In this document: positions 1,943 through 59,484 of the stretch, piece by piece
Layout of the letters: each line of letters starts with the position of its first letter
How positions within the stretch are numbered: position 1 is the stretch's first letter
Assembly: GCA_010356995.1 (NCBI GenBank)
Contig: ML996704.1
Location: 186,001 to 250,000 of the forward strand
Length of the DNA stretch: 64,000 nt
Source: Trichodelitschia bisporula
Taxonomy: Eukaryota
Reading direction: 5' to 3'
Made by a program: the position numbers and the translations under genes
Notes under the pieces: generated by a model
The model's database searches: none
Told to the model about the DNA's origin: nothing
Seen by the model: only the letters and a program-made list of their open reading frames with translations

Positions 1943-4355
1943 CTAAGGTTCGATGCTCATAGGTGCCAGCACGTCGTCCATCTGTGCCAGCTCGTCGTCG
2001 CTCATCTGGGCTAGTACATGATCCGTCACATCCACCATGCCCTCCGTGTCTGCCAGCGTGAAGTTCAACCCGTCAATCAGCCTCCTTACAGGGGGCCAGG
2101 ATTTGCAGTCCGAACTGGCATCAGCCCTCGGATCGATCTTGAACCGTACACAGTTATTCTCCACCGTCCCGCCTTGCTTCCCGTTCACACCACTCGTATT
2201 GCATTGATCGATGGGCTTCCTCAGCTCCCTGCTGCAATCATCCTGCAGCACGAGTCAGCATCCATATCCTGCCCAGGGAATCGGTCTCCACTTACAAAAC
2301 TGTGAAAGTACTCGCAGTTTTTGAGAACAAAGATTTCCAGGCAAATCTTGTGCGCGCCCAGACCTTCGACAGGCAAATCACTCTGCCACCGCCGTACCAA
2401 TCCCTCCTTATACGCTGCCCCCTCCTGGGTCATTTTGCAGAAGCTGTTAATCGCCCCAATCGCCTTCCCGCGATCGGTCTTAGCCCCAGCCCCTCCCTCG
2501 CAATGGACCTTATCCTGTAACCAGTCCGGGTTGGGCATGTGGCTCGGGCCAGGCATCCACGGCGCCGGCGTCGACGTCGACTTGCTAGGAGGAGGGGGCT
2601 CGAAGCCGTTCGACTTGTTCTGATAGTCGATAGACCAAATCATCGTACCGCCGACGCACAACATATCGGCCCAGAGCATTTTGATTTGCATGGTTTGCGG
2701 ATCATCGAAAGCTACCCAGCTGTTTAGGTCGTAGACCATGTACTTTTGCGCAGCAGTGACGTTGAAGTAGGGGTAGACAGGCTTGCTCTTGTCCTGGATG
2801 AGCCTTTGGATCTCGTTGTTTGACAGAATGCCTTCAGAGTCTGTGCACATTCCTTTGGCGCCGGGTCCCCGGAATTTGCAGCCGCCGCCCATGCGGTCGC
2901 ATTGCCGGTCCAGGAGTTTGTACGTGCGGCCGTAGTACGGAATACCGAGGTTGATCTTTTTGGGGTCAACACCGTCGTACCAAAGGGGCATCAGATTCTT
3001 GTTGATCTCGGTCCAGTCCGCCTGAGGCCGAATTTCGGAGCCGAGAGCTTTGACGTCCGTGTCCCACGACCCGTGGAGGTCGTACGCCATGAAGCCCATG
3101 TGGTCGACATAATGTTGGAGTTCTCCCGGCTTGAAGTAGCGCAGGTACCAGTAGTCCGGAGCCAGCGCAAGGCTAAGGCCAAACTTGGTGCCGAAGGCCT
3201 GCCTCATTTCCTTCATGAGAAGCACAAAGTTGATAGTATCCGACTTGCGTCCTCCACGCTTCGCCTCGCCGGGGTACTCCCAGTCGATGTCGGCGCCTTC
3301 GAAACCCCACTTGTACATGAATAGAAGGAGCGAGCTTATGAACTTCTGCCTGTTCGCCGCAGAGGAAACCATGTCGCTGAAGGCCCACTTGGTGGGTCCG
3401 TCGTCATTGAATTCCCATCCGCCGATCGCGATCCATGTTTGTAGCACCCCGGGCTTTTTAAGCTTTGTGAAAGAAGGGTAAAGCTGCTCGTCGTACGGAT
3501 CCATTGGCTTCACCTCGAAGGTGACGGGATCAAAATACAAGAACGAGAAGTACAAGTGCGTGAGACCGTCAGTGTTGATATCTCTCGGATACACTCTATC
3601 GCATTTACGCTTGCGTACATTCCAGCCCTGATAGTAACCGATGCGGCGATATTCTGTAGTCTTCATTCCCGCAGAGCAGCTGGGTGGCTTGATGATTTCG
3701 CACTTTCCCATGCCTTTCTGGCATGGTGCTGTATTCCACTGAGGCTCCGGGTCAATGCAATGCTGAGGCTCCGTTCCACACCTGCGATAATTAGAAACTG
3801 CTCAACCCACGACGGACGAGTTACTGACCATCCAAAGTACGAGCAGCAGAGCTGCAGTCCGCAAGGGGTATGTCCGTCCTCCGACTCGCGGCCGCACATA
3901 GCGTGCGCATTGCAGTTGGAGAAGCACCTGTCCGGCGCGCAATGGCTGGGACCATATCCACACAGGCCTTCGGAGTTACAACACGACCCATCCACACAGG
4001 CCTGCTCGCGTGAGCATCGAAGGGGACCATGGCCAGTAAGTTGCCATTTATCAGTCTTGTCCACATATGTATCGTTGGGAGGGCCGCCTCGGAGCCACTG
4101 TTGGTACTTGGTCTCTTCGTTGATGTACGAGGTGCCCAAGCCAAGTATATCGAGAACGGCACCGGTTGGTTGCCGATAGCCTCCACCGGGCCCACTTCCC
4201 GGGCGTTGTTCCGGGATCGCTGTCAGTTGGTCCACCGTTTGATTTGGCGGCAGTTCGGCAACCGTTGTAACGTTGGAAGCGTCGTTTGCATGGCTGGCAG
4301 CATGGCACAAGCCGGATAGAGGCAAGACCAAGGCAAAAGCCCGGAGAAGAGCCAT
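1943..4355 (-). CDS. Secreted GH18 chitinase, subgroup C (killer-toxin-like), with two CBM18 domains and a Cys-rich C-terminal domain; 3 exons
   Basis: Signal peptide MALLRAFALVLPLSGLCHA. Two hevein-type CBM18 (CCNSEGLCGYG, CCSYFGWCGT across intron 3828-3782). GH18 motifs IAIGGW, EGADIDWEYP, MAYDLHG, MIWSID. A second intron (GTAAGT...GCTGAC...CAG, about 2295-2243) joins the catalytic exon to ORF 1943..2251. Confidence 0.92.
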
Positions 4356-10118: not shown

Positions 10119-11172
10119 CTACACCCAGCTCCGCGGCGTCTTGAGCACCTCCACTAGCGTCGCCTCGCGACTCCCTGCCGGAGGCTCGTGCATGTATTCC
10201 CAGCGCGCTGTCAGTGGCAGGCTCATGAGGATGCTCTCCACGCGACTGCCCGGCGTATGCAGCCCGAACGCCGTGCCGCGGTCGTGCACGAGGTTGAACT
10301 CGACATACCGCCCGCGGCGCAGCTGCTGCCATCTCTTCTCGTGCTCCGTGAAGGGCGCGTCCTTGCGCCGGTTAATGATGGGGAGATAAGATGGTAAGAA
10401 GGCCGCAAGGCACGTCGAAGCAAAGCCGAATAGCTCGTCGGGCGTCCCGTTCGTGGAGTCCAGATCGTCAAAGAAGATACCCCCTACGCCGCGTGCCTCG
10501 CCCCGGTGCTTGTTGACGAAGTACTCGTCGCACCACTTCTTGAACCGCGGGTAGTAGCCCTTGTCATGCTTGTCGCATGCGTCTTTGAGGGTCTGGTGGA
10601 AGAGGGCCGCGTCTGCTTCCTCCAAGTAACTCGGTGTGAGATCCGACCCGCCGCCGAACCACCACGCGGCCCGGCCCTGCGCGTCCCGCGTCTCGAAGTA
10701 CCGGTAGTTCAGATGTACAGTCGGGGCATGCGGATTGCGGGGATGCACCACAAGACTCAACCCCGCGGCAAAGAATTCGAGCCCCTCAGCCCCCGGGTCC
10801 AGATCGAGGGCCTTGTGATCCGCACGCATGCGCTGCACCGCCGCGCGCGGCAGCGTCCCATACACAACACTCGTATTCACGCCCGCCTTCTCAAACACAT
10901 TCCCCTCCTGCAGCACACACGTAATCCCCCCGCCGCCATGCGGCCGCGTCCACGGCTCGACCTTAAAGCTCTTCCCGTCCACCGCCTCGAGCTCGGCCAC
11001 GATCCGCTTTTGCCAGCCGTGGATCAGGGCTTCCATGCGGAGGCGCATGGGGCTGCTTGGTGTGACGGGCGCTTTGCGGAGGAGGGCGTCGCGGTCGGCG
11101 AGGGAGGGTTCGTCGGCTGCGTGGGTGGGGGTTTCGGTGGCCTTTGCGAGGTGTTAGGGGGGGGGATTGAGA

Positions 11173-13471: not shown

Positions 13472-15029
<1,558 letters not shown>

Positions 15030-16129: not shown

Positions 16130-17902
16130 TTAAATATCAACCGGCACTCTCCTCTGCCGACTCGTCCCATCCGCCCTCCGATAACTCATCTTCGCCCCAT
16201 CCACCCCCTCCCCACCATCATCCTCAAACCTCTCCCCCCCACCATACCCACCAAACATCCCCCCGCTCTCCACACCATTAACCTGCGGCCGCGCACCCTG
16301 CCGCAACGGCTGCTCCATATGCTCCGTGCTAAAGGTACTGCTAAACCGGCGTTTCGGCGCGCCGCTCGTCGGCGTCTGCACGGGACTATACTTCGCCGGC
16401 TGGGGCGGAGTCGGGCCCTGCGGCGCCGCGGGCGCAAGACGTGACCCCGCGCCATTGGGCCCGGTCTCATAGTACCCGTTTGAGCCCTGGCGGCCGTCGT
16501 ACCGCTCTTCGTCTTTGAGTGGGAAGTGCTGCTGCGGCGGGGGTTGCTGCTGCTGCTGCTGTTGGGCCTGCGGCGGCGCCGCGCGGTACCCGTTCATATC
16601 GGTGTACGGGCTCATAGCCTGCTGCGGCTGCTGGGGATGCGGGCTCTGCTGCTGCGGGGGCTGGAACGCCTGGCTTGTCGGCGGGTACTGCTGCTGCTGG
16701 GGTGGGGGGTGCACCTCTCCATGCCTTCCGTCGTAGTACTGTTGCTGAGGCGGGTACGGCGCGTATCCCGGCGGGGGCTGGGGGTAGTGCTGCTGCGGGC
16801 CGGAAATGAACGGCGGCGGGTGCATATACGCGCCCTGTTGCTGTTACTGCTGCGGGGGGGGCGCGTGCCAGGCTTGCATCTGGGGCGGGTACATCGCCTG
16901 CGGGGAGTGGGGCGTGATAGGCGCGGCGTAGGGCTGCTGCTGCCCTTGGTAGGGCATGGCCTCGAGGCTAGATGGCCGGGCGGAGTAGGATGCGTTGGAG
17001 GCGTTGGAGACGGAGCGCGGGCGCTCGATGCTGTCGAGGGGTGGGGGTTGGGGGGTTCCGATCGGGGCTTGCTGGTAGGCGTCGGGGGTGGCGGTTGCGC
17101 GGCGCGCGCGCTCGTAGCTTTCCTCCTCATACTCGTCGTAGTCGCGCGAGGACTTGTTTTCGCGGCGGCGCATGCGGACGTCGCGGCGGATGCGCACGCG
17201 GCAGCCTTGCTCGGCGACCATGCGGCTGAGGGCCGTGGATTCGGACAGGCCTGGGAACTTCTTGGCGGAGAAGACGGTGAAGGGGACGGACTTGACTTCC
17301 AGGCGGTGGGAGACGTGGGCCGACTTTTGGATTTCGGCGTTTTGCGGTGTTTCGCCGTCCATGTCTTTCAATTCCTTCAGTTCCTCGTACAGGGAGAAGG
17401 ACAGGCGGTATTTGCCCTCGTGGCGCACCGACAGGTCTGGGAAGATGAAGTAGCCTGCTGGCAGCGGGCGGTCGAGGTATGCCATGCCGGCGACCGGAGT
17501 ACCGGTCAGGACGGGGAAGGCGGGCTGCGACGGCTGCGGCACGCGGCCCTGGGCGAGATGGCGAGCATTCTCGAGTGTAGCGAACAGGAAGAAGTTGGCA
17601 TTGTACTGGAACGTGATGTCATTTTCCGCGTTCGGTCCCTCGAAGATGCGCAGCTCGACAATCGGCGGCGGGTCTACGGGACGGCGGTCGGCAGACGCTT
17701 TGGTTCAGGGTCAGAAAAACGTGTTCCGTTGACGAAAACGCGACGCTCAAAACTCACACTTGGCGCCACTGCCACAGGCACGCGCGCGCTCGGGCTGTTG
17801 GATGACATCCATGCGATACGTGATCTTCTTGCCCTCCTTGGTGATGCGCGACGACGAGCTGTGCGTCTCGTTGGGCACCTGGATGATGCCCGTGGTGGCC
17901 AT
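16130..17902 (-). CDS. veA: Velvet regulator VeA, interrupted by an in-frame TAA at 16846-16844
   Basis: [26 protein letters not shown] (intron 17757-17698), [37 protein letters not shown], and C-terminal 'SYRRADG' motif. Confidence 0.95.
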
Positions 17903-18852
17903 GGTGCTGGCAAGCGGCGCCGAATGGACTTCGGCCCTGTGAGGAGCGGGATAATCAGCGATGAGAGACTTGCGGGAGGAAGCCGGTGCAGAGAATAAAG
18001 GGGCGCGACGGATGCGGGTTGTCTTTGAAGTAATATGGGATTGATTGCCTCGGGTCGATGCTCGCCGTGGAGCTGGGTGGTCTGGCGATCCCAAGGCGAC
18101 GGCGAGTAGCGTGATTTGTCGGGAGGGAGATGGGGGGAAGGGGTGGGCGATGATAATATCACTATAGAGACTTACCGGCGATAGTTGGAATAGATTGAGT
18201 TGTCAGGGTCTCTGGCAGGGAGAGATGGTGTTGTTATTGTCTGGTTGCGGTGACGTTGAGGTGTGGGTTGTGGGTTGGAAGAAAGAGTGGAGAGATGAGT
18301 TCTGGTGGGCGGGGGGTGTAGAAGGGAAGAGAGGGCAAAAGGGAAGGGTAACGAGGCACAAGGACGGGGTCGGGAGATGATGGGGGGTGGGGGGGAGGTG
18401 GGAGGGATGGAAGGTTAGAGGAATTCCCAGGACTCAGGGACTGGACGGGGCGGCCTGGGCATTACTTGGGTCTGGGAAGGGGAGGGTGGTCAACGAGCAG
18501 CGGGGTGGGCAGTGAGTGGGTGGTGGAAGAGCGTGTATGGAACGATGCTTGAGTGGGTGGGGATGGCCTATTCACACATTGGATAGGAGCATTTTGTGTG
18601 GCAGGGTAAAGAGGAGAGAGGGCGTTACCATAGACACCACCAGTAAAACGCCACTAACACTAGCATATGGACACTGACTTGATGGTGAGGATGAAGCCTT
18701 GTTACACGCAGGAATGGAGAAACGAGCAGTGCAGACAGCGGGCGGGTGGTTGAAGGATCACGGTGACGGTGATGGAAGTTTAAGGTGGTGATTCCTGGCG
18801 CTTGTGGTAACGGTGGTGACGCTGCGTCTCTTCCATCCTCATCTTCCCGTCT

Positions 18853-27407: not shown

Positions 27408-29675
27408 TTACAACTTCGCCTTCGGCCTCGACTTCTCCAGCTCTTCAACCTCAGCATACATCTCATCCAGCAACCCGCGATACACCTTCGCCACTTGAGG
27501 GCGCTTGAGCTTCATTCTATTCATCCATTAGCATCACCACCCTAAAGAACCAAACCACAATCCACTTACGTCGGGGTCAACAACTCATTCACCTCCGTGA
27601 AAGGCTCCAACGCAAGCCTAACCGCCTTCACCTTCTCATAGGAATTAAACTTCTTCTTCTTTGCCACGTGGTCGAACTCCTTCAACGCCGCCGCCCTCAC
27701 GAGAGGGTGATCGCACGCCTGGCGCACAGCCGCGTAGTCTTTCGTCCCAACTTCCTTCCCCAAAATTTTGCTAGCCCACGGCGCGAATCCCTCCGGGTCG
27801 ACGCCGAATACGCCAACCAGCGAATCCTTTGCCGAATCGCCATGGACATAACCCGACGCCAGCCAGCCACAGCTCGCCAGGAAAACATTCTCAATCCGCT
27901 CGGGGGAGATGTACTCCCCATGCGCGAGCTTAAGCAATTGCTTCACGCGATCCACGATGCTAAACCGGCCCATCTCATCCACAGACGCGATATCCCCCGT
28001 CGAGAACCAGCCCTCGTCGTCCTTAGCTCCCGCCGTGCCTTCCGGATTCCGCCAATACTCGCGGAAGACAGAGCCACCACGCACAAGCAGCTCGCCGCGC
28101 GGGTACGGCTTGTCGGTGCTAAAGTACCCCATGTCCGGCACATCCCTGAGGCACAGCTCGTCGCACGCGCACACACCGCCGCAGTTACCGGCGGTCATAT
28201 CGCCCTCGGCTTGGCATAGCGCGATGGCGTACGTTTCCGTTAGGCCGTAGCCCTGGCAGAACGTGTTTGCAAACACGACGCGCAGGAACTGGTGCAAACT
28301 CGGATCCAACGGGGCGGAGCCCGAAACCATGGTCCCGCAGCGGTCGAGCCCGATCTGTGCGGCAACCTTACGCGACCAGATCCGATCCCAGAGGAGATGC
28401 TTGTTCGTCGCGGTCTTGGGGTCGCCGGTGCGCAGGCGCGCCATCTTCGTGCCCACGACGTGGCGGGACAAGGCGCCGCGGACACGCTCGTCACTCTCTG
28501 TGGTCGCAGCCGTGATCTTGCTGCCGAACTTATTGAACAGCCGCGGGACGCCCGAGAACCCGGTCGGGCGGAGGAGCTTGAGGTCGTCGACGAGCTCGGG
28601 GATGACACCGTGGAAGTAGCCGATCGAGGCGCCGGCCCAGAGGGCCACATGCTCAGTGACACGCTCGTATATGTGCGCGAGGGGCAGGAAGGAGCATGCG
28701 ACGTCCGCGGGACCCTGCTTCATGAGCAACATTGCGGCTGATGCGGCGGCAACGGCGTTGCGGTGCGTCAGCACCACACCCTTGGGATTGCCCGTCGTGC
28801 CGGACGTGTAGTTGATCGTAATCAGGTCGTCGGGGCGGGGCGGGTTGAATGGCGCGCTCGGGTCAACGGCACCCATGGCCTCGACGTCGCGGATGTAGAG
28901 CACCTGGACGCCGACGTCGGCGGCGAAGGAGGCGAGGAGCGCGGCCTTCGAGTTCTGCGGCTGTTCGCCGTTGCTCAGCGGGTCCATCGAGATGATGAAC
29001 TTGAGGCTCGGGCAGCGGGGCTTCAGGCGCAGGAGCGTGGGGACGTGCATCAGGCTCGTGACGACGCAGGCGAGCTCGGCGTTGTTGATAATGTACTCCG
29101 TCGCGTCGGGGCCGAGCGTATCGTACAGAGACACGCTGAACAGGCTCTGGCTCATACACGCCAGGTCCGTGATCTGCCATTCGGGCCGGTTTTGGCACCA
29201 CAGGCCCACGCCGAAGCGTCCGCCGATGCCGGCCGCCGAGTGCAGCTTCACAAGCCCGACGCCTAGGTTGCGCCGGCGCAGCGCCACGGTGCCATAGTCC
29301 TCCCAGACATAGTCGCCGAAGCTCTGGGTCGCGGGATTCCAGGGCCGGACGCCGAGGCAGTTTTTCTTGGGGGCAGTGGTTGCTAGTGTGGTCAGCCTTG
29401 TTTTCTGCGAATAGGGCGAGGTTTACGCACACGTCTGCTCAAAGAAGTCATGCGCCGTTTGGATCTGCGATTGTTAGCTGGGTTCGCCGCTTGCGCGCAT
29501 CACGCACCGCCGGGTCTAGCGTCTCGAGCAGTCCATCGCGGAAGCGCCAGTGCCGGTACACCTCTGTGCGGCCTTCGCGCTTCGAGCCTGGGACGGTGAC
29601 GCTGTAAGGCGAGCCGGGCGTCGGAGGCGGCTGGAGTTCGGCGGCGCGTTTGAGGGAGACGGTGTTGAGCGACAT
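27408..29675 (-). CDS. Peroxisomal long-chain-fatty-acid-CoA ligase (FAA2-like); 4 exons
   Basis: AMP-binding motifs YTSGTTGNPKG, SFLPLAHIYER, QGYGLTET, GWFSTGD, GEYISPE. The last exon after intron about 27569-27517 ends ...PKAKL*, a PTS1 signal. Confidence 0.92.
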
Positions 29676-36558: not shown

Positions 36559-37917
36559 TCATTTATAGGTGCTCCCAATCTCTCCCCACCGGATCTTCGA
36601 AAACGTCACGGCCGCATCTGGCTGCTCCGTCTGAATCTGCGCGGGCCGTCCGCCGGTAGTCGGGCACGGCCCCCGGGCAGCTCCCAGAGCGTTAGGAGGC
36701 GAATCGTTAGGCACAGTCGAGTCCAGCCAATGCATGTACCCTCCAGCATCATGCCAGATGGCCATCGCCAGCACCATTCCACGGCCAAGGGCTTCACCCA
36801 TGACCTTCATCCCGCCCTGCGTCGCAAATGCATTCGGAGCTTTGGCACCCCCTCCGAACAGCTGCTTCTGAGTCGAGCAGTATCCGTCCGTCATCGAGTT
36901 GGCGCCTTCAATCCCCTTGACCGTCGAGGTCGCCTCCGGAATCACCTTTCCGCCCTGCACGTACAGGCGCTTGATTTCGGTCAAGGCACCGCTCTTGGTG
37001 TAGAACTGAGTCACGACGGTGAAAGGCTTGGTTGTGTCCACGGTGTGGTCGGCTCCCTTGCCGTAGAAGCTCTTCGCACCGTTGCGGTAGCCGTTGAAGT
37101 CGCATCCGTCGCGGTCGCAGACGCTGTCTAGCCTGTTCTTGTCCCCGCACAGTTCTCCCTTACAGGCGTACACGCCTGTCTCGTTACAAGGGTGCGGCGT
37201 GAAGGCCGTCGCGGCAGAATTTGCCTCCCAGATATCCATCTCACTGCAACAGGCGCCGAGTGATTGGTCGAGATTTGCCTATTTTGTCAGCCATACTTCG
37301 ATACCACCGGGAGAGCAGCTTACCTTTCCGTGGATGAAGTTCTGCTTGGGGCACTGGGCATCGCAATAGCCAGTACCGTACTTCGCACCCGCCGTATTGC
37401 CCTTGCCCGCATCGCCGGCCATGTCCATCTCCGAGAAGTACAGGGCACCATTAACGCCACAGCCAGCCTTGCTCATATCGACATCGAAGCTGAACTCACG
37501 GTCCAGGAGCTGGAAGTTGGCGTACTTGCCTTCGGCCTCATCGAAGAGGTAGATCCGCGGGCTGGCCAGCTGGGTCTTGCCCTCTTTTACCGTGAAGAGG
37601 TTCATAGTTACTGAATCGGCCTGGGTCTTGATCCCGTACCCGGCATAGTCGACGCCCTCGACGGCACACGACGTTACGCACCCCTCTGGCGAAGAGCAAA
37701 TGCTGGTATTAAATTTCCCGTCGGCCATGCAGTTCGTGTATCCTCCGACATTGTGCAGCCACCGGAAGTTGGAATCGAGTACAATGCTAGTGTTTGCAGG
37801 AACACAGCCGCCCTGAACGGTACAGCGGGACGATGGAAGAGAAGGGTGGCGCTCCGGGGTGTTGGTTCCGGGTTGCTGGGCCGCAACGAGCGACAGGAGA
37901 AGGATTATAGGAAGCAT
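36559..37917 (-). CDS. Secreted GH7 cellulase (endoglucanase-like loops, no CBM1); 2 exons
   Basis: Signal peptide then QQPGT, VLDSNFRW, CGVNGALYF, YGTGYCDAQC, catalytic EMDIWE, CDRDGCDFN. Intron about 37323-37279. Confidence 0.95.
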
Positions 37918-40194: not shown

Positions 40195-42231
40195 ATGCAG
40201 TTCCCGAAACTGACCCCCTTACAATCGCGCCTTGTTGCCTGCCTGTGCACTTCGACCCTCTGCGTCTTGGTATACTACCTGCTATCGCCCGCGCCCGCGC
40301 GCTACTTCGCCTACGCTGCCGAGCTAGACTCGCTGCTCAATCAGGACCACAACCACCACCGGATACTGGGGGCGCAAGGCGCGGAGTTGCTGGGCGACAG
40401 TTGGGGCGAAGAGGGGAGCTACGAAGCCGAGTTTGTGGGTGTGAGCCGCTCGCTGATCGGGAGGGCGGACGATGTGCCTCAAGGGCTGAAGAATAATGTG
40501 CCGGAGACATTGAATATCGATCCTGGAGACACCAAGTACTATGTGTTTGAGAAGGCGGACATATTCGGCAAGAAGGGATCCAACAGGAAGGAATTGCCGT
40601 CTAACCTGCCCCCCGACAATCATCGGACAAAGAGGGATGATAGTGAAGGAGAATCTCTGGATGCGGCGGAGCATGCGAACCAGACTTTGGAGAGGCGGCA
40701 GGACACTTCCATACAACAGGTGTACATCTCGATCAACACATGTCTGCAGCCTACGACAAACGCGACCGTCACCGCATACCCGCAGCTCTCTCTTTACATA
40801 TCGACCGTGGATACGAACCAAAAGCCAGGTCCAGGCGCCGATGACAGCTCGCAAACAATGTTCCAGCTGGATGGCGGATACATGAATGTTACCATTAATG
40901 TGACAGACAACGTCTACATTGGAATAGCGGCGCCGAAGCTCGACCTCGGTTTCACTGGCAGCTGGAACTATGAGATTGCGGCGTCGATTGACGCTTTCTT
41001 CATGGACTACTTTGAGACGCCGTTCCTGTGGAAGGTCGACTCGGACTCCAACTCCGCGCTGCTGGCGACAATGAATCTTACCAGTGAGAACGTCCCCCCC
41101 GATAATGTCACGGCGCAAACGAAGATGGAGCACCTGCGCCAGAAATGGATGGGCATCACACCGCCGTTTGAGCTTTTCGTATTCAATCAAAGCGATCCTG
41201 CTGCTCAGGCCCTGAAGCGATCCTACTGCGGCCTCAAGAAAATGAATCTGGGCGCAGGAATCGATACCAACATGACCAGGCGCGGCATGGGCCAAAACCC
41301 GAAACAGCAGTTCCACGTGAAGCAGCTGAAGCCCGGGCAGAAGTATCTTGCGATATTGGGATACAACGGTGTAAAGCAGGAGGATGAGGTCGGCAGCGCT
41401 GGAGGAGGCGGAAGGATATGGGAGACGTTAAGCTTTGAGACTCAAAGAGGTTTGTCCTTCGTGATCTAGTTTCCAACACTAACGTCCGCAGACGGCAACT
41501 GCCGCATCATATTCGACCTGCCCTTCTGCAACGACGTCGCCTACGCCGTGCCCACAAATCCCACCAACGACACACTAAAAGACATGCAAAACCTCGTGAA
41601 CTTCTACGACGAGCACGCCAAAGCGCTGTACCAGAACTTCACCTTCTCCCTCCAGCAAATCCCCTGCGACACAACCTCCTCCGCGCAGTACTCCCTCGTC
41701 TCCAACTGCGAGCAATGTGCCCGGAGCTACAAAACCTGGCTCTGCGCCGTGACCATCCCGCGCTGCACCGATTTCTCCGCCCCCAACTCGTCGACGAAGA
41801 AATATCTCCTCCCGCGCAACGTCATGCAGCCATTCTACAACAACGACTCCCTGGCCGACCTCACAGGGCACTGGAACGACCCCGCCGAGGCCCGCGAGCG
41901 CATGTATCTCAACTCAAGCCGCAACCCGCTGATCGACAGCGTCATCCGCCCGGGGCCCTACAAGGAGCTCCTGCCCTGCCGGCAGCTGTGCTACGACCTC
42001 GTCCGGACTTGTCCTGCGGCGTTGGGGTTCCAGTGCCCTGACCAGGGGTTTATGCTAGATAGGAGTTATGGCGATTTTGATAGGAGTCAGTTTTCGGTTG
42101 ATGTTGTTACGTGTAATTATCCGGGTGTGGATTGGCCGACGTTGAGTGGGGTGGGGAGGGTTCGGGGTGCGGGGGTCGCTGTTGCGGTGGCGGTGGGGTT
42201 GATGGTGATAGCGGTTATGGAGGGGTTGTAG
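40195..42231 (+). CDS. MID1: Calcium channel subunit Mid1; 2 exons
   Basis: N-terminal hydrophobic segment, 'VYISINTCLQP', 'SYCGL', 'PKQQFHV', intron about 41450-41490, Cys-rich 'C...YKTWLCAVTIPRC' and 'YKELLPC..LC..LVR.CPAALGFQCP', hydrophobic tail. Confidence 0.93.
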
Positions 42232-45566: not shown

Positions 45567-48355
45567 CTAGATATCCTCCCCCTCCCGCTCCTCCTCAACC
45601 TTCTTCCCCCTTCCATCCAAACCCCGAAGCTCAATCCCCCCCTCCCTCGCCCCCATAGCAATAGCCTGCCGCCCCGTCTCACTGCTCTCCAAAAACTCCC
45701 TGAGTTTCTCCTTCACGATCTCCAGCGCCTGACTCCATGCCGCATTCCCCATCCGCAACATCGGGCCCCACAGGTTCAAACTGTACGTGATGTAACTCGC
45801 CGTCGCCGCCAGGATCAAGAGTACAATCAACAGGGGATTGCGCGCCACTGCGACTGTTAGCCTTGCTTCCATTAACACCACCACTTCCGACTCACCAGCA
45901 AAAATCTCATTCTGCCCCAACACCAACATAACCGCCCACATCCACCACGGCGTTTGCGTCACACCCCCCAACGCACCCCTCTTCGCCTCGACATACACCC
46001 CATCCGCCGTCTTGCGGAACCTAGCCGCCACGTCAGCGGCCCGGGCGTCGCCCAGAACAGCCATTTCCTCGGCGATGCTGCCGCCCTCCTCGGCGTCCAC
46101 GCCGCCAATAGGGGGGAGGTCCTCTTCATCGGCCGGCGTGACCGACTTAGGCGGAACGCCAATCCAAGACTCCAGATCCGGAGCCGAACCCGTGGCTTGG
46201 AGGCGGAAGCGCGCGAGCAGCGGGATGAGCGTGAGGGTGTGATCACGTGCACGCGCAAACGCGCCGTCGATATCGTCGCTCGGGCGCCAGATACGCGGGA
46301 CGCCGGCATCATCATACCGGAAGCGGTCCTCGAAGCTACGCGAAGCGCATTAGCATCACCCCGTGCCCCACATACCTAGGAGGGAACTCACTTCTCGCGC
46401 AACTTCAGCAGCAAATTCCCCTCACTAACCTCCTCGTCGATCTTCGCGCGGAGCACGCCCCAACTCTTCCGTCTCAGCCGCCACAGCCCGACGTCCACCT
46501 CCTCAGCCGAGGCGTCGTAGCTGCGTGCACGCTCCGTGAAGCGCGCCTCCGCCTGCTGCACCGTGTCGCGAAACACAGCCCACACACGGTCCCACAGCTC
46601 GCGCTCAACAGCAGGCTTGTCGCCGTGCTCGGGCGCGCCAGATCCACCTCTACCAGAACCCAGGGCATTAAACTCAAGCCCAACCGCTTCACCCAGCCTC
46701 GTCCGCACCCAGCGCTCCACACGCGTAGCCAGACGTCTCATTTCCTCCTTCCTCAGCCCGGAGCCCACCTTCTCCAGCTCCTTCTTAAACATCCCATACT
46801 CATGCACAAAATCGCTCCATGGCGCGCCCTCGACACTCGCCTTCCGCGCCGTCTTCTCGAACCTTGCAAAAGCATCGGCCTTCGCACTCTCCACGATCTG
46901 CGCAAAATCGTACTGCGCGCCTTTCTTCTGCCCCGCTTTGACGGCCTCGGCGACCGCGCGGCTGAACTCCGCGATCCCGGCTGCATGCGCGGCAGCGAGT
47001 TGCCCCTGGAAGAGCGCCTTGAGGCGGCCGTCGATCGTGGCCTCGAGCTCGGCGCGCTTGCGCGTGTACACGCCCTTGTGGTAGCGGCTGGCCTCCAGCT
47101 CAAAGTTCTTGACCACAGCCTTGCGCGCGCTGGTCATCGTGTTGCCGAGATCGGCGATAAGCGCCGGTTTGCCGGCCTCGCGTGCAGAGTCAGCTTGCTC
47201 ACGCTCCAGCGGGGCGACGACCTCGTCAAACTGCACCAGCACCTCGCGGGCGATTTCGTCGCAGCGGAACTGAGCGAGCAATTCCTGCTGCGTGGGGAGG
47301 TCGAGATCCTTGTTGTTGACGATCTGGTCCCAGATGCTCTCGGCGTAGACGGGGAAGCCGTCGGCGGGGATGCGGCGGTGGTATTCGGGGAGCAGGAGCG
47401 GTTGGTCCGCTTCGTCGACCAGGCCGTGCCTTTTCGGGTCCTTGTAGCCTTCTCGGAAGCGGGAACTTAGCTTGTGGACCTCGGCTTCGAATTTCTCGGG
47501 CTGTAGGATCTTGTGCGGCAGCGCAACGAAGGCGAAGTCGAAGTAGTCGTCGATCTTGGAGGATTCGAGGCCTGGCGGCTTAGAGATGGAGGCCCAGAGC
47601 CGGCCAAGGTCGGCGAGCAGTGTGGCGCGCAGGTTGGCTAGTGGAGTGGTGCCGAGGTGGTCGCGGATGACGAAGAAGAGCAGCGAGCGCGGGATGGATC
47701 TGTACGATTAGTCTCGGGCACAGAACTCAATGGCTAGGCAAACGTACTGGTTGTCCTTGACAAACAGCTGCAAATTGACCTCAAACACAGTCTTGAGCAG
47801 CCCCATGTTGGCGCCTTGGTAGAGCCCGACCTGGTGCTCCCAGATGTTGACGATGAGCACTTCGCTCGTGGCCAGAGCGAACAGCGCACTCTTGCGCTCA
47901 AAGTCCTGGTCCTCGCCGCGCTCGCGGCCGTCGGTGCCCTCAACGTCCATGACGAGGATGTTCTCAGCCATACCACGGGCCTCGCGGTCGGCGCCCTCGC
48001 GCTTATTCTTCGACATCCATATGCCCTTTGTAGTCTGGCGGCGCTCGGCCTCGCTCATGACGCCAAAGGAGGTACCAAACAGAAAGTTGAGCAGCGTGGA
48101 CTTGCCCGTCGACTGCGAGCCAAAGACGGAGATGAGGTGGTAGTTGAAGCCGGCGGGGATGATCTTCTCGCGCGCCAGGTAGGTGCCAACATTTGCGTTG
48201 AAGTTCTTGTCCTCGTCGATCAGCTGGATGCCGTGCTCGTAGCTGGCGGCGGTGTCCGCGGCCATGCTCGCGAAGTGGCCGTTCATGTATTTGGCGGGTG
48301 CTGAACCGAAAGAGAGTGGCATGCTGGGCCGGCGGAGCTCTTCGGAGCCTGCCAT
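45567..48355 (-). CDS. SEY1: Atlastin-like ER-fusion GTPase Sey1/RHD3; 4 exons
   Basis: [59 protein letters not shown], and a TM hairpin near the C-terminus. Start could be 48355 or a downstream ATG. Confidence 0.95.
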
Positions 48356-56716: not shown

Positions 56717-57544
56717 TCAAACCGGCAAGTTAAATTTCTTGCCCTGAAGCACCCTGTAAGGGTTAGAGGAGTAATACGGAAGAGTAGGACGATTATACTT
56801 CGTGTAGTAGATCCAGAAGAAATCCGAGTACAGCACCGTCTGCAGAATTCCCGCCGTCACGGCGATGGGATCGAAGAAGCGCGGCCGCTCGATGAAGTAC
56901 CGGTACAGCCAGTTCGGGATGTACAAGGTGCGGTAGGCGCCGAGCGCGAAGAGGTAGTGCGTTGTGATTGTCTCTGCTTCGCCGGTGCGCTGCAGCATGA
57001 AGAGCTGTGGTAGGATGGCTACGGACTCGAGCCAGATGGAGAACGCCCAGAGGATTTCGGTCAGCGAGTACTTGTAGGGGAACAAGATTGCCAACACCGC
57101 TGCCCCGCCCAGCAGGTACTGGACCTGGAAGGTGTCGGCGTTGCGGTCGTGGGTGGGCTTGTAGTCGTTCAGCATCAGGTAAACCACGTAGGAGGACGAG
57201 GTGATGAACACGATCTTGAAGATGGTGTTGTACAGCGCCGACGGTAGGTAGAACGTCCACAGAAGATCGATATACCGTGTGATGTACACGATCAGGTACA
57301 GGAACTGCGATTTGAAGCTGATTCCGGCGGCGCTCTGCGGAAATTCGTCAGTGGGCGTGCGCGGTGCGGCTACGGGCGCGCCGGGAACGTACACTGGAGC
57401 TCTTCATCTTCTGGAGCAAGATGAAGATAGAGAGAACATGGGACAAGTCCGCTATTCACAAGCCGTCAGTATGCGCAGAACGCCGCGAGGCCCAAACCTC
57501 ATTTCAAGGGGATGCGCACCGAGAATGCGAAAGAGGTTCATCAT
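56717..57544 (-). CDS. ERD2: ER lumen protein-retaining (HDEL) receptor; 4 exons
   Basis: MMNLFRIL|ADLSH, GISFKSQ, WLESVAILPQL, LGAYRTLYIPNW, QTVLYSDFF, KFNLPV. Confidence 0.96.
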
Positions 57545-58063: not shown

Positions 58064-59484
58064 ATGCAGACCGCCCGCCGTGACGAGATGGGCTCCTCCG
58101 ACGAAATGACCTCCTCCGACGAGATGACCTCTTCCAATGAGACTGTCTCCACCAACGATATTCCGCCCTGGAGCGGGCGCCTGATCCCCCTCCGCACGCG
58201 CGGTGAGGTGCGGGCGAGCAACGAAACAAGTACGCGCATATGACTCCAACACATCCCAGCTAACATCCGCAGTCGACGCCTACGCCATAGAAATCCCCGC
58301 CAAATCCGCCGCCGCAGTGCTCAAGTACATCTCCTTTACAACCGCCTTGTCGTCAAACTAACCCCACCAGCGCCCTGAAAGACCCCATCCCCGTCTCAGT
58401 AACAGCGCGCCTCCAACACCTCCGCCGTCTCGTCAAACCCACCTTCCTACCCCCCCACCTCCAACTACCCACCACAACCACCAGTGCCCCAACTCTCCAC
58501 CTCCTCCTCTGTCCCACGTCCCACACCACCGCCCAGACACTTCTCACAGCCTTAGAATCACACATCCCTCGACCGCGGATATATGTAACCGCCATTCCAG
58601 CTCACCCACCCACCTCCGCGTCCCACGCGGCCAGCTGGTCCGCAACCCACTGGCCCACAGCATACAAGAACACGAATCCCCACGGACCACACCCCTCCCT
58701 TGTCGCCCGCACGGCGGCGGAAATCGAGGCCGACGTGGAAGGCTACATGACGCTGGCCGCACAGGCCGCGCACGAAGCCCGCACCTCGGGACGAGGCGAA
58801 CCCATCGGCGCCGTAGTCGTCGAGCGGCTACCCACAGGCCCAAGGATCGTCGTCATCGCAGCCGACGCCCGGCACCACGGGTCCGAACCCGCCCCCCTCG
58901 CCCACGCCGCGATGCGAGCCATAGCACTAGTCGCGCAGAAACGGCTCGCCCTCCGCGAGGACAGCCCAACCTCACCCTGCACACCCTCCGTCCCAACTCT
59001 CAACATCCCATTCCTGGACCGCCCGCTTTCGGCCCTAGAAGAGGGGTACTTCGTCGAACCGACCCTTACGCCCGGCGGATATCTAGCCTGCGACCTAGAG
59101 CTGTACCTCAGCCACGAGCCGTGCGTCATGTGCGCGATGGCGGTGCTGCATAGCCGGTTTAGCCGGGTTGTGTACGGAATTCCAAGGGCGAGGACGGGGG
59201 CGCTGGCTGCGGAGCGGGGGGAGCTAGATGCGGAGGCGGAGGAGGGGGTGGATGGGGTGACGAGGCGGAAGAGGAAGAGGGATGGTGGAGCTGGTTTATC
59301 ACTCGTGGCAGCGGAGGACAGCACTGTCGAACCTCCGGCAGCGGCACAGGGCGAGGTCCCTGAACCGCCCGTCCTTGATTACGGACTCTTCTGGCGCGAG
59401 AGTCTGAATTGGAGGTTTCTGTGCTGGCAGTGGGAGGGGGCCGTGCCGGACGGCCTGGACGTGGAGGAGGATATATCCTGCTAG
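58064..59484 (+). CDS. TAD3: tRNA A34 deaminase non-catalytic subunit; 3 exons
   Basis: LQHLRR after two introns, pseudo-active HAAMRAI (no catalytic Glu), HEPCVMCAMAVLHSRF, LNWRF. Confidence 0.88.

Follow-up and report, generated by a model that had tools for sequence, protein, structure and literature searches.

The VelB-VeA-LaeA complex, with VeA as its bridge, links light, fruiting-body development and secondary metabolism to one another. In Aspergillus nidulans, the N-terminal velvet part of VeA binds VelB and the C-terminal part binds LaeA, and within the 573-aa protein NLS2 was assigned to aa 507-516 (mutated residues K509 and R510) and NLS3 to aa 537-563 (PMC12169562). Combined NLS mutations mimic the deletion in this species, and a VeA 1-225 form is still nuclear and mislocalised in light (PMC12169562). 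Natural lesions of the gene were described in Botrytis cinerea, where one SNP in bcvel1 of strain T4 results in a protein of 184 aa instead of 575 and explains the light-blind, sclerotium-less phenotype (Schumacher et al. 2012, PMC3485325), and where a second natural isolate carries a different early bcvel1 stop (PMC3485325), so that alleles of this kind turn up more than once. As the same report describes both the T4 SNP and a sequence error in B05.10, it provides a precedent for a real allele and for an artefact as well. Interrupted frames of another kind are the PSC pseudogenes of Fusarium graminearum and Neurospora, namely conserved genes of development in which one in-frame stop is followed by an intact frame; their UAG stops are conserved across species and are edited to UGG in sexual development (PMC10776026, PMC11156358). 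According to these two sources, such restorative A-to-I editing was reported only for Sordariomycetes and one Pezizomycete, and a TAA is an 'uneditable' allele that acted like the deletion in 12 of 14 tested genes.

Trichodelitschia bisporula is a dung saprobe, the genome of which was assembled from Illumina HiSeq data with AllPaths-LG (Suppl. Table 5, PMC7082219). The stretch analysed here, referred to as the window, comprises 64,000 nt of its contig ML996704.1 (GCA_010356995.1), and all coordinates are window positions. On the minus strand the veA gene reads ...CCG CAG CAG TAA CAG CAA CAG GGC GCG TAT ATG..., with the TAA at 16846-16844 lying in frame between a 283-codon velvet-domain stretch and 237 further open codons (Table 1). 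The stop-to-stop ORF list displays the same situation as two ORFs of one phase that directly abut, with 286 aa for 16844-17704 and 237 aa for 16130-16843. By a scripted splice model, the TAA is codon 333 and yields a 332-aa product, or 570 aa with readthrough; in the full-length frame exon 2 spans 17697 to 16130, where a 19-residue sequence precedes the normal stop. The preliminary description had placed an in-frame stop in a veA poly-Gln tract, with the velvet domain retained before it and a frame open to 16130 with a YRRADG motif near its end, and had counted 332 aa against about 570. These claims were borne out, as the TAA parts adjacent same-phase ORFs, the Pfam Velvet match lies upstream of it, sequence and ORF list agree on the open frame and the motif, and the rebuilt gene gives 332 and 570 aa.

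Table 1. Features of the interrupted veA gene and of three control stops in the window. Residue numbers (K448, M503 and so on) follow the exon-2 translation (P0001), in which the stop is X284.
Feature	Position	Strand	Remark
veA exon 1, 145 nt, ATG at 17902	17758..17902	-	encodes 48 residues plus the first base of the next codon; splice-model translation equals the deposited 332-aa protein
Intron 1, 60 nt, GTGAGT...CTGAC...AAAG	17698..17757	-	excision joins ...GSGAK to the next 12 residues shown by the model, matching the deposited protein and homologues
veA exon 2 before the stop, remaining velvet domain plus low-complexity linker, 283 aa	16847..17697	-	Pfam, PDB, conserved columns
In-frame TAA, codon 333, inside CAG CAG TAA CAG CAA CAG	16844..16846	-	Q-rich insert absent in most homologues
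237 open codons past the stop, intact VeA C-terminal region	16133..16843	-	phmmer, shuffles, kept columns; untranslated if the stop is obeyed
Invariant Lys-Arg, K448 R449, within an 11-residue stretch	16349..16354	-	invariant in 17/17 sequences; likely NLS2 counterpart by position
Terminal 16-residue motif	16142..16189	-	M503, Y505-T511, R513, P518 invariant; likely bipartite NLS3 counterpart by position
Normal stop (TAA) of the full-length frame	16130..16132	-	sequence, ORF list, splice model
GH7 gene stop	37279-37281		45-nt intron, GTAAGC donor
Sey1 gene stop	47708-47710		48-nt intron, GTACGT donor
Mid1 gene stop	41467-41469		no match to the strict donor pattern; GTTTGT...ACTAAC...CAG by eye

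The part upstream of the stop matched Pfam Velvet (PF11754) at E=1.2e-47 with 163 bits against a cut-off of 25, and among PDB chains the 332-aa protein had A. nidulans VeA as its best relative (9i2s_A, 9.2e-71), ahead of VosA (1.2e-22) and VelB (7.3e-20). The designation as veA made in the preliminary description is thereby upheld, and orthology to veA (velvet A) is supported at the sequence level. The 237-aa downstream piece matched neither a Pfam family nor a solved chain. When exon 2 with an X in place of the stop was searched against 5.8 billion proteins, a 100%-identical record of 332 aa was returned, KAF2397098.1 ('hypothetical protein EJ06DRAFT_533291 [Trichodelitschia bisporula]'), so that the public annotation already stops at the TAA 16846-16844. 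The other matches listed had at most 58% identity over the whole query and lengths of 460-813 aa, mostly 520-620; the top ones were full-length, at 520-610 aa, and some bore the name 'velum formation-related protein'. The C-terminal motifs typical of VeA (KR...LxxGARP... and a 14-letter pattern followed by V or I and P) were present in the T. bisporula frame, but past the TAA.

Open frames come cheap in GC-rich DNA, so the identity of the downstream piece as a VeA tail must rest on homology. By phmmer, the tail alone matched 103 of 119 VeA homologues at E<1e-5, 43 of them at E<1e-10, and 107 of 108 matched stretches ended within 15 aa of the homologue's C-terminus, while 20 composition-preserving shuffles of the tail gave no match to the homologues. 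In an alignment of 17 sequences, all 22 invariant columns downstream of the stop were kept in T. bisporula, among them K448-R449 in ...KRxFSxTF..., L464, G467, R469 and P470 in LxxGARP, and M503, Y505-T511, R513 and P518 in the terminal motif. The tail frame contained no further stop and had a GC3 of 0.77, while the other two frames of the stretch held 3 and 8 stops; no frameshift was found in it, across many homopolymer and CAG runs. Judged from these sequence comparisons, the 237-aa piece is a genuine C-terminus of VeA. On the opposite strand, an antisense open frame of 504 codons (16484-17998) gave no Pfam match.

The stop itself (X284) lies within a Gln-rich insert where most of the 16 homologues of the alignment show a gap, the T. 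bisporula sequence having 17 residues there versus PPPQ----MGYMQPPP in most homologues. Glutamine is encoded in veA by 48 CAG and 11 CAA codons, and the codons flanking the TAA are likewise CAG and CAA. The simplest origin of the stop would be one C-to-T transition in an ancestral CAA.

Removal of the stop by splicing was examined at the level of intron signals. Donors of the form GT[AG]NG[TC] were absent within 90 nt upstream of the stop, and the only GT donors that would give frame-preserving introns of 40-400 nt across it were GTCTCC at 17011, GTACCC at 16892 (at least 168 nt) and GTAACA at 16847 (at least 123 nt). The 52- and 58-nt GTACCC...CAG pairs fail to restore the frame, as had been stated earlier: with the donor at 16892 and the AG at either 16841 or 16835, both lengths are 3k+1. 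A 123-nt intron from GTAACA at 16847 to an AAG at 16725 was considered and rejected, since its donor is poor, its acceptor is AAG and a CTRAY branch site is missing; it would also remove the four invariant residues M291, P293, P294 and R324, and it is unused by the deposited model. As far as the sequence signals tell, no plausible intron takes out the stop.

The region was also compared with relatives and with other stops of the window. A protein-guided metagenome scan provided 80 related loci, of which 77 contained the velvet anchor motif and 3 lacked it. From this anchor the frame ran for at least 500 codons to a normal end in 63 loci and off the contig in 13, and in the one remaining locus (L046) it broke at 341 codons, the tail lying in a different frame. 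The frame is hence unbroken in 63 of 64 assessable relatives, two of which (L001 and L002) were uninterrupted on full reading, indicating that full length is the norm and that the stop region is one exon in relatives. As a control, stops in the window with at least 120 open codons on both sides were collected (n=13), and the three largest other same-frame cases, in the GH7, Sey1 and Mid1 genes, turned out to be ordinary in-frame introns, with the Pfam profile carrying on over the gap in each (Table 1). They resemble veA in that two long same-phase frames are parted by a single stop; the veA stop, in contrast, is without intron signals and sits in sequence homologous to the relatives' coding sequence.

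Taken together, we consider it probable, though by no means certain, that the sequenced strain carries the TAA as a genuine and recent nonsense allele, CAA>TAA. That the stop base is real in the strain's DNA, and that it is recent, we infer. This reading is favoured by the established stop and frames with a deposited annotation that ends at the same stop, by a bona fide tail without a second stop or frameshift, by the location in a Q-rich insert with CAG/CAA flanks, by the unbroken frame in 63/64 relatives, by the type of assembly, and by the bcvel1 precedent in Botrytis T4. In Illumina-type assemblies consensus substitutions are rare, and indels are the usual artefact in repeats. Nevertheless, the intact tail would be expected just as much from a sequencing error, or from a tail that is still in use, as from recency. 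RIP leakage was considered as a source of the mutation and rejected, since the window is without an AT-rich island (GC 0.50-0.65 per 2 kb); a lone CpA-to-TpA change is unassignable to RIP.

An assembly or base-call artefact, by which the strain's DNA would have CAA or another sense codon, veA would encode 570 aa and the deposited 332-aa protein would inherit the error, predicts just such a run of 237 codons that are intact and homologous to the very end, and the site does lie in low-complexity CAG/CAA repeat DNA. The sole protein record comes from the same assembly and gives no independent confirmation, as an exact protein look-up returned the deposited 332-aa protein and no other, its cluster having 1 member, the tail ORF being absent with or without its ATG. 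A full-length allele of the same species was likewise not found in the 5.8-billion-protein collection, the exact 36-base stretch beside the stop had 0 matches in metagenome contigs, and none of the 80 metagenome relatives was of the same species, the best ones having 78-81% identity over the query and one partial locus 93% over 138 residues. A search for the tail among proteins of 130-415 aa gave no match and was uninformative, probably with poly-Gln words filling the 8000 candidates. An error in this very gene is also on record, as a missing base in Botrytis B05.10 split bcvel1 into two misannotated proteins (PMC3485325). The T. bisporula case would, however, be a substitution in an Illumina/AllPaths-LG assembly, where the usual fault in repeats is an indel; with up to 2 mismatches allowed, the window contains the 18-mer spanning the stop just once, leaving no local paralogue to confuse the reads; and the remaining three large pairs of same-frame ORFs of the window are normal introns, not errors. 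We therefore hold an artefact to be unlikely, yet worth keeping in view.

Recoding, in which readthrough of the UAA-C, RNA editing or the 123-nt splice would provide both a short and a long VeA, would account for the intact tail and appears to us quite improbable. Yeast readthrough is favoured when a stop is followed by a C at +4 and by a CAR codon, and the veA stop is followed by a C and by CAG CAA; UAA, however, is the least leaky stop codon. When UAA is naturally read through in yeast, the residue inserted is Tyr in 54% and Gln in 44% (PMC4150775), either of which would fit a poly-Gln tract. Against this, the stop is not conserved, since 16/16 aligned homologues are continuous across the site, most of them without the insert, and the RNA folds are ordinary, with a z of +0.71 around the stop (150/200 shuffles as good) and of -1.23 for the 100 nt after it (26/200 shuffles as good). 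Marks of programmed readthrough, sought as stop conservation, a leaky codon and RNA folding, were thus absent from the veA stop, with its context judged by the commonly accepted consensus. As to editing, a change of UAA to UGA would still leave a stop, and the veA codon is TAA and not UAG. What veA shares with the PSC pseudogenes is that a conserved developmental gene continues intact past one in-frame stop; the veA stop, unlike theirs, is a TAA, is unshared with relatives, and occurs in a fungus of a class for which the sources on PSC genes report no editing (PMC10776026, PMC11156358), so restorative A-to-I editing at it is unlikely. As to splicing, a frame-preserving GT..AG pair does start at the stop, but it is the weak candidate described above, with the loss of four invariant residues and no use in the deposited model.

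The preliminary description had named a nonsense allele, leaky readthrough and a base-call error as explanations; the first is the best supported, and leaky readthrough found no support beyond the C after the stop, given the UAA, the relatives without a stop and the ordinary RNA folds. A trace of near-normal full-length VeA made by basal readthrough of the UAA is conceivable from this analysis. Hardly to be expected is a more elaborate form of the idea, by which the TAA is real but leaky, producing mainly a short VeA that pairs with VelB without LaeA, while a low Gln/Tyr insertion at UAA-C, perhaps condition-dependent, supplies some full-length VeA and selection keeps the tail. If this were true, the stop in the poly-Gln tract would be a dosage switch between development and secondary metabolism.

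By the nonsense-allele reading, one C-to-T transition would have turned a CAA (Gln) into TAA in a lineage-specific poly-Gln insert of a disordered linker, and ribosomes would halt at codon 333 and release a 332-aa VeA. This short protein would retain the N-terminal NLS region and the whole velvet domain, which in Aspergillus provides the surface for DNA binding and VelB pairing, and would be without the last 237 residues, which in A. nidulans provide LaeA binding, NLS2 and NLS3. The invariant KR and the terminal RRADG...RRVP of T. bisporula are probably the counterparts of NLS2 and NLS3, as judged by their distance to the C-terminus and not by alignment. From the analysis of domains, the 332-aa VeA should keep the velvet-domain functions and lose LaeA recruitment and a part of localisation control. 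The predicted outcome would be a partial loss of function, in which the VelB-VeA dimer may form, the VelB-VeA-LaeA trimer would not, and nuclear traffic would be altered; the 237 downstream codons would be a remnant that has not yet decayed.

Such a product is partial in the way of A. nidulans veA1 and VeA 1-224/1-225, which are partial VeA forms altering light-dependent development (PMC3485325, PMC12169562). Of these, VeA 1-225 is missing the same kind of tail (NLS2, NLS3 and the LaeA-binding part), folds, as seen in the crystal structure of 1-224, and enters nuclei (PMC12169562). The 1-225 forms are engineered, however, and the T. bisporula product would keep about 110 linker residues more; veA1, in contrast, loses its first 36 residues through a start-codon mutation and not its tail (PMC3485325, PMC12169562). 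The closest precedent, the bcvel1 allele of T4, shares with T. bisporula veA a premature stop in a genome-sequenced strain and a single-base change as its cause, a probable one in the case of veA; the two genes are also alike in a single short intron close to the 5' end and in their intact size, about 575 aa for bcvel1 (PMC3485325). The T4 stop cuts into the velvet domain and is null-like, whereas that of T. bisporula lies about 110 residues past the velvet domain with only the tail lost; the T4 allele was re-sequenced, genetically mapped and complemented (PMC3485325), whereas the T. bisporula stop is known from the assembly alone; and Botrytis is a crop pathogen, whereas T. bisporula lives on dung as a saprobe. 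The lesion is of a known kind in a well-known regulator, as in bcvel1 of T4, and the finding is at the level of annotation, with no new mechanism.

Should the stop be real, the strain behind the reference genome is probably a partial velvet mutant, and its morphology, fertility and metabolites, as well as comparisons using the 332-aa 'VeA', would be unrepresentative of the species. The allele could then be informative as a separation-of-function form from nature, which keeps the velvet domain and linker and has lost the LaeA-binding, NLS2/NLS3-containing tail. Should the stop be an error, the protein in the public record is truncated and needs correction. Among the matches listed for literature naming Trichodelitschia, no title or abstract opening dealt with velvet genes.

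The age of the lesion was addressed through the divergence of the tail, by using 117 sequences, i.e. the query and 116 of the 119 homologues (three were dropped for lengths outside 500-660 aa). The ratio of C-terminal to velvet-domain identity was 0.411 in T. bisporula, the lowest of the 117, followed by 0.429, with the nearest relatives at 0.44-0.45, while its velvet and linker parts showed ordinary divergence. Of the C-terminal columns, 25/28 of those at least 90% conserved were kept (the seventh lowest value) and 36/50 of those at least 80% conserved (the third lowest), compared with 138/140 of the N-terminal columns at least 90% conserved. To judge from sequence divergence, this small excess in the tail could reflect a brief relaxed constraint, a lineage-specific Gln/Pro-rich composition or alignment noise, and the relaxed constraint could have lasted longer than 'recent' implies; it leaves a recent mutation versus an error undecided.

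An older truncation, perhaps species-wide and selected, would fit this lowest ratio and the loss of more conserved C-terminal columns than in most homologues. The tail would then persist by chance in GC-rich DNA, in which long spurious frames such as the antisense one of 504 codons are common, or be expressed separately from the ATG at 16825, six codons past the stop. Eukaryotic reinitiation after an ORF of 332 codons is inefficient, though, and 25/28 of the columns at least 90% conserved and 22/22 invariant columns are kept without a frameshift; moreover, the excess divergence is small (0.411 versus 0.44-0.45), and the N-terminal and linker parts show none. With these points weighed, an older truncation strikes us as very improbable, and a recent nonsense allele remains the preferred reading. 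Over its whole length the protein is about 58% identical to those of the nearest relatives with DNA, a distance too great for dN/dS, as synonymous sites would be saturated. Other phylogenetically isolated lineages scored near the T. bisporula ratio.

Besides the stop in veA, three more single stops were found to separate long same-phase open frames in the window, those in the GH7 cellobiohydrolase-type, Mid1 and Sey1/RHD3 genes (see table), and in 3 of 3 the Pfam profile spans the gap at the stop.

Features in the window and in the metagenome locus L046
Feature	Sequence	Position	Strand	Remark
GH18 chitinase	window	2224-3801		
Coproporphyrinogen oxidase	window	10122-11153		
Cys/Met PLP enzyme	window	13719-15029		
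Open frame antisense to veA	window	16484-17998	+	504 codons
AMP-binding enzyme	window	27569-29422		
Stop in GH7 cellobiohydrolase-type gene	window	37279-37281	-	within 45 nt in-frame intron
Stop in Mid1 calcium-channel component gene	window	41467-41469	+	within short in-frame intron
Stop in Sey1/RHD3 GTPase gene	window	47708-47710	-	within 48 nt in-frame intron
ER-retention receptor	window	56720-57403		
ORF with cytidine/deoxycytidylate deaminase zinc-binding domain	window	58291-59481	+	397 codons; PF00383, 3.7e-11
veA relative, N-terminal part	L046	112-1311		one frame
veA relative, tail	L046	797-1948		another frame; ends ...[20 protein letters not shown]

The VeA tail downstream of the TAA (16133-16843, minus strand) is unusually abundant in Gln and Pro runs, e.g. 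[14 protein letters not shown], and some motifs present in the majority of homologues, for example the SP.Y stretch at about alignment columns 670-680, are missing from it. When identity in the C-terminal part was divided by identity in the velvet domain for 117 sequences, T. bisporula VeA and 116 database homologues, the T. bisporula protein ranked lowest.

Among the 64 assessable metagenome relatives, only one broken veA copy was observed, that of L046 (112-1948), whose N-terminal part and tail lie in different frames; the frame change stems either from a frameshift or from an indel in the assembly. The first veA intron is absent from this contig, which therefore may be a transcript. In several database homologues (P0006, P0009 and P0010), ...GSGAKCK... 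is followed by about 20 unrelated residues and then by ASADRRP; gene callers apparently read through the conserved first intron, and so the N-terminal regions of these proteins appear to be mispredicted.

The open frame antisense to veA yielded no match in the Pfam search, and the GC content around it is 64%, illustrating how long spurious ORFs can become at such a composition. Across the whole window (1-64000), GC per 2 kb ranged from 0.50 to 0.65, with no AT-rich, RIP-like island, and the genes near veA, namely those for the chitinase, coproporphyrinogen oxidase, PLP enzyme, AMP-binding enzyme and ER-retention receptor in the table, were of ordinary fungal housekeeping or saprotroph types. 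The deaminase-domain ORF may encode a Tad2/Tad3-type subunit of a tRNA adenosine deaminase; in Fusarium, mRNA editing is carried out by enzymes of this family.
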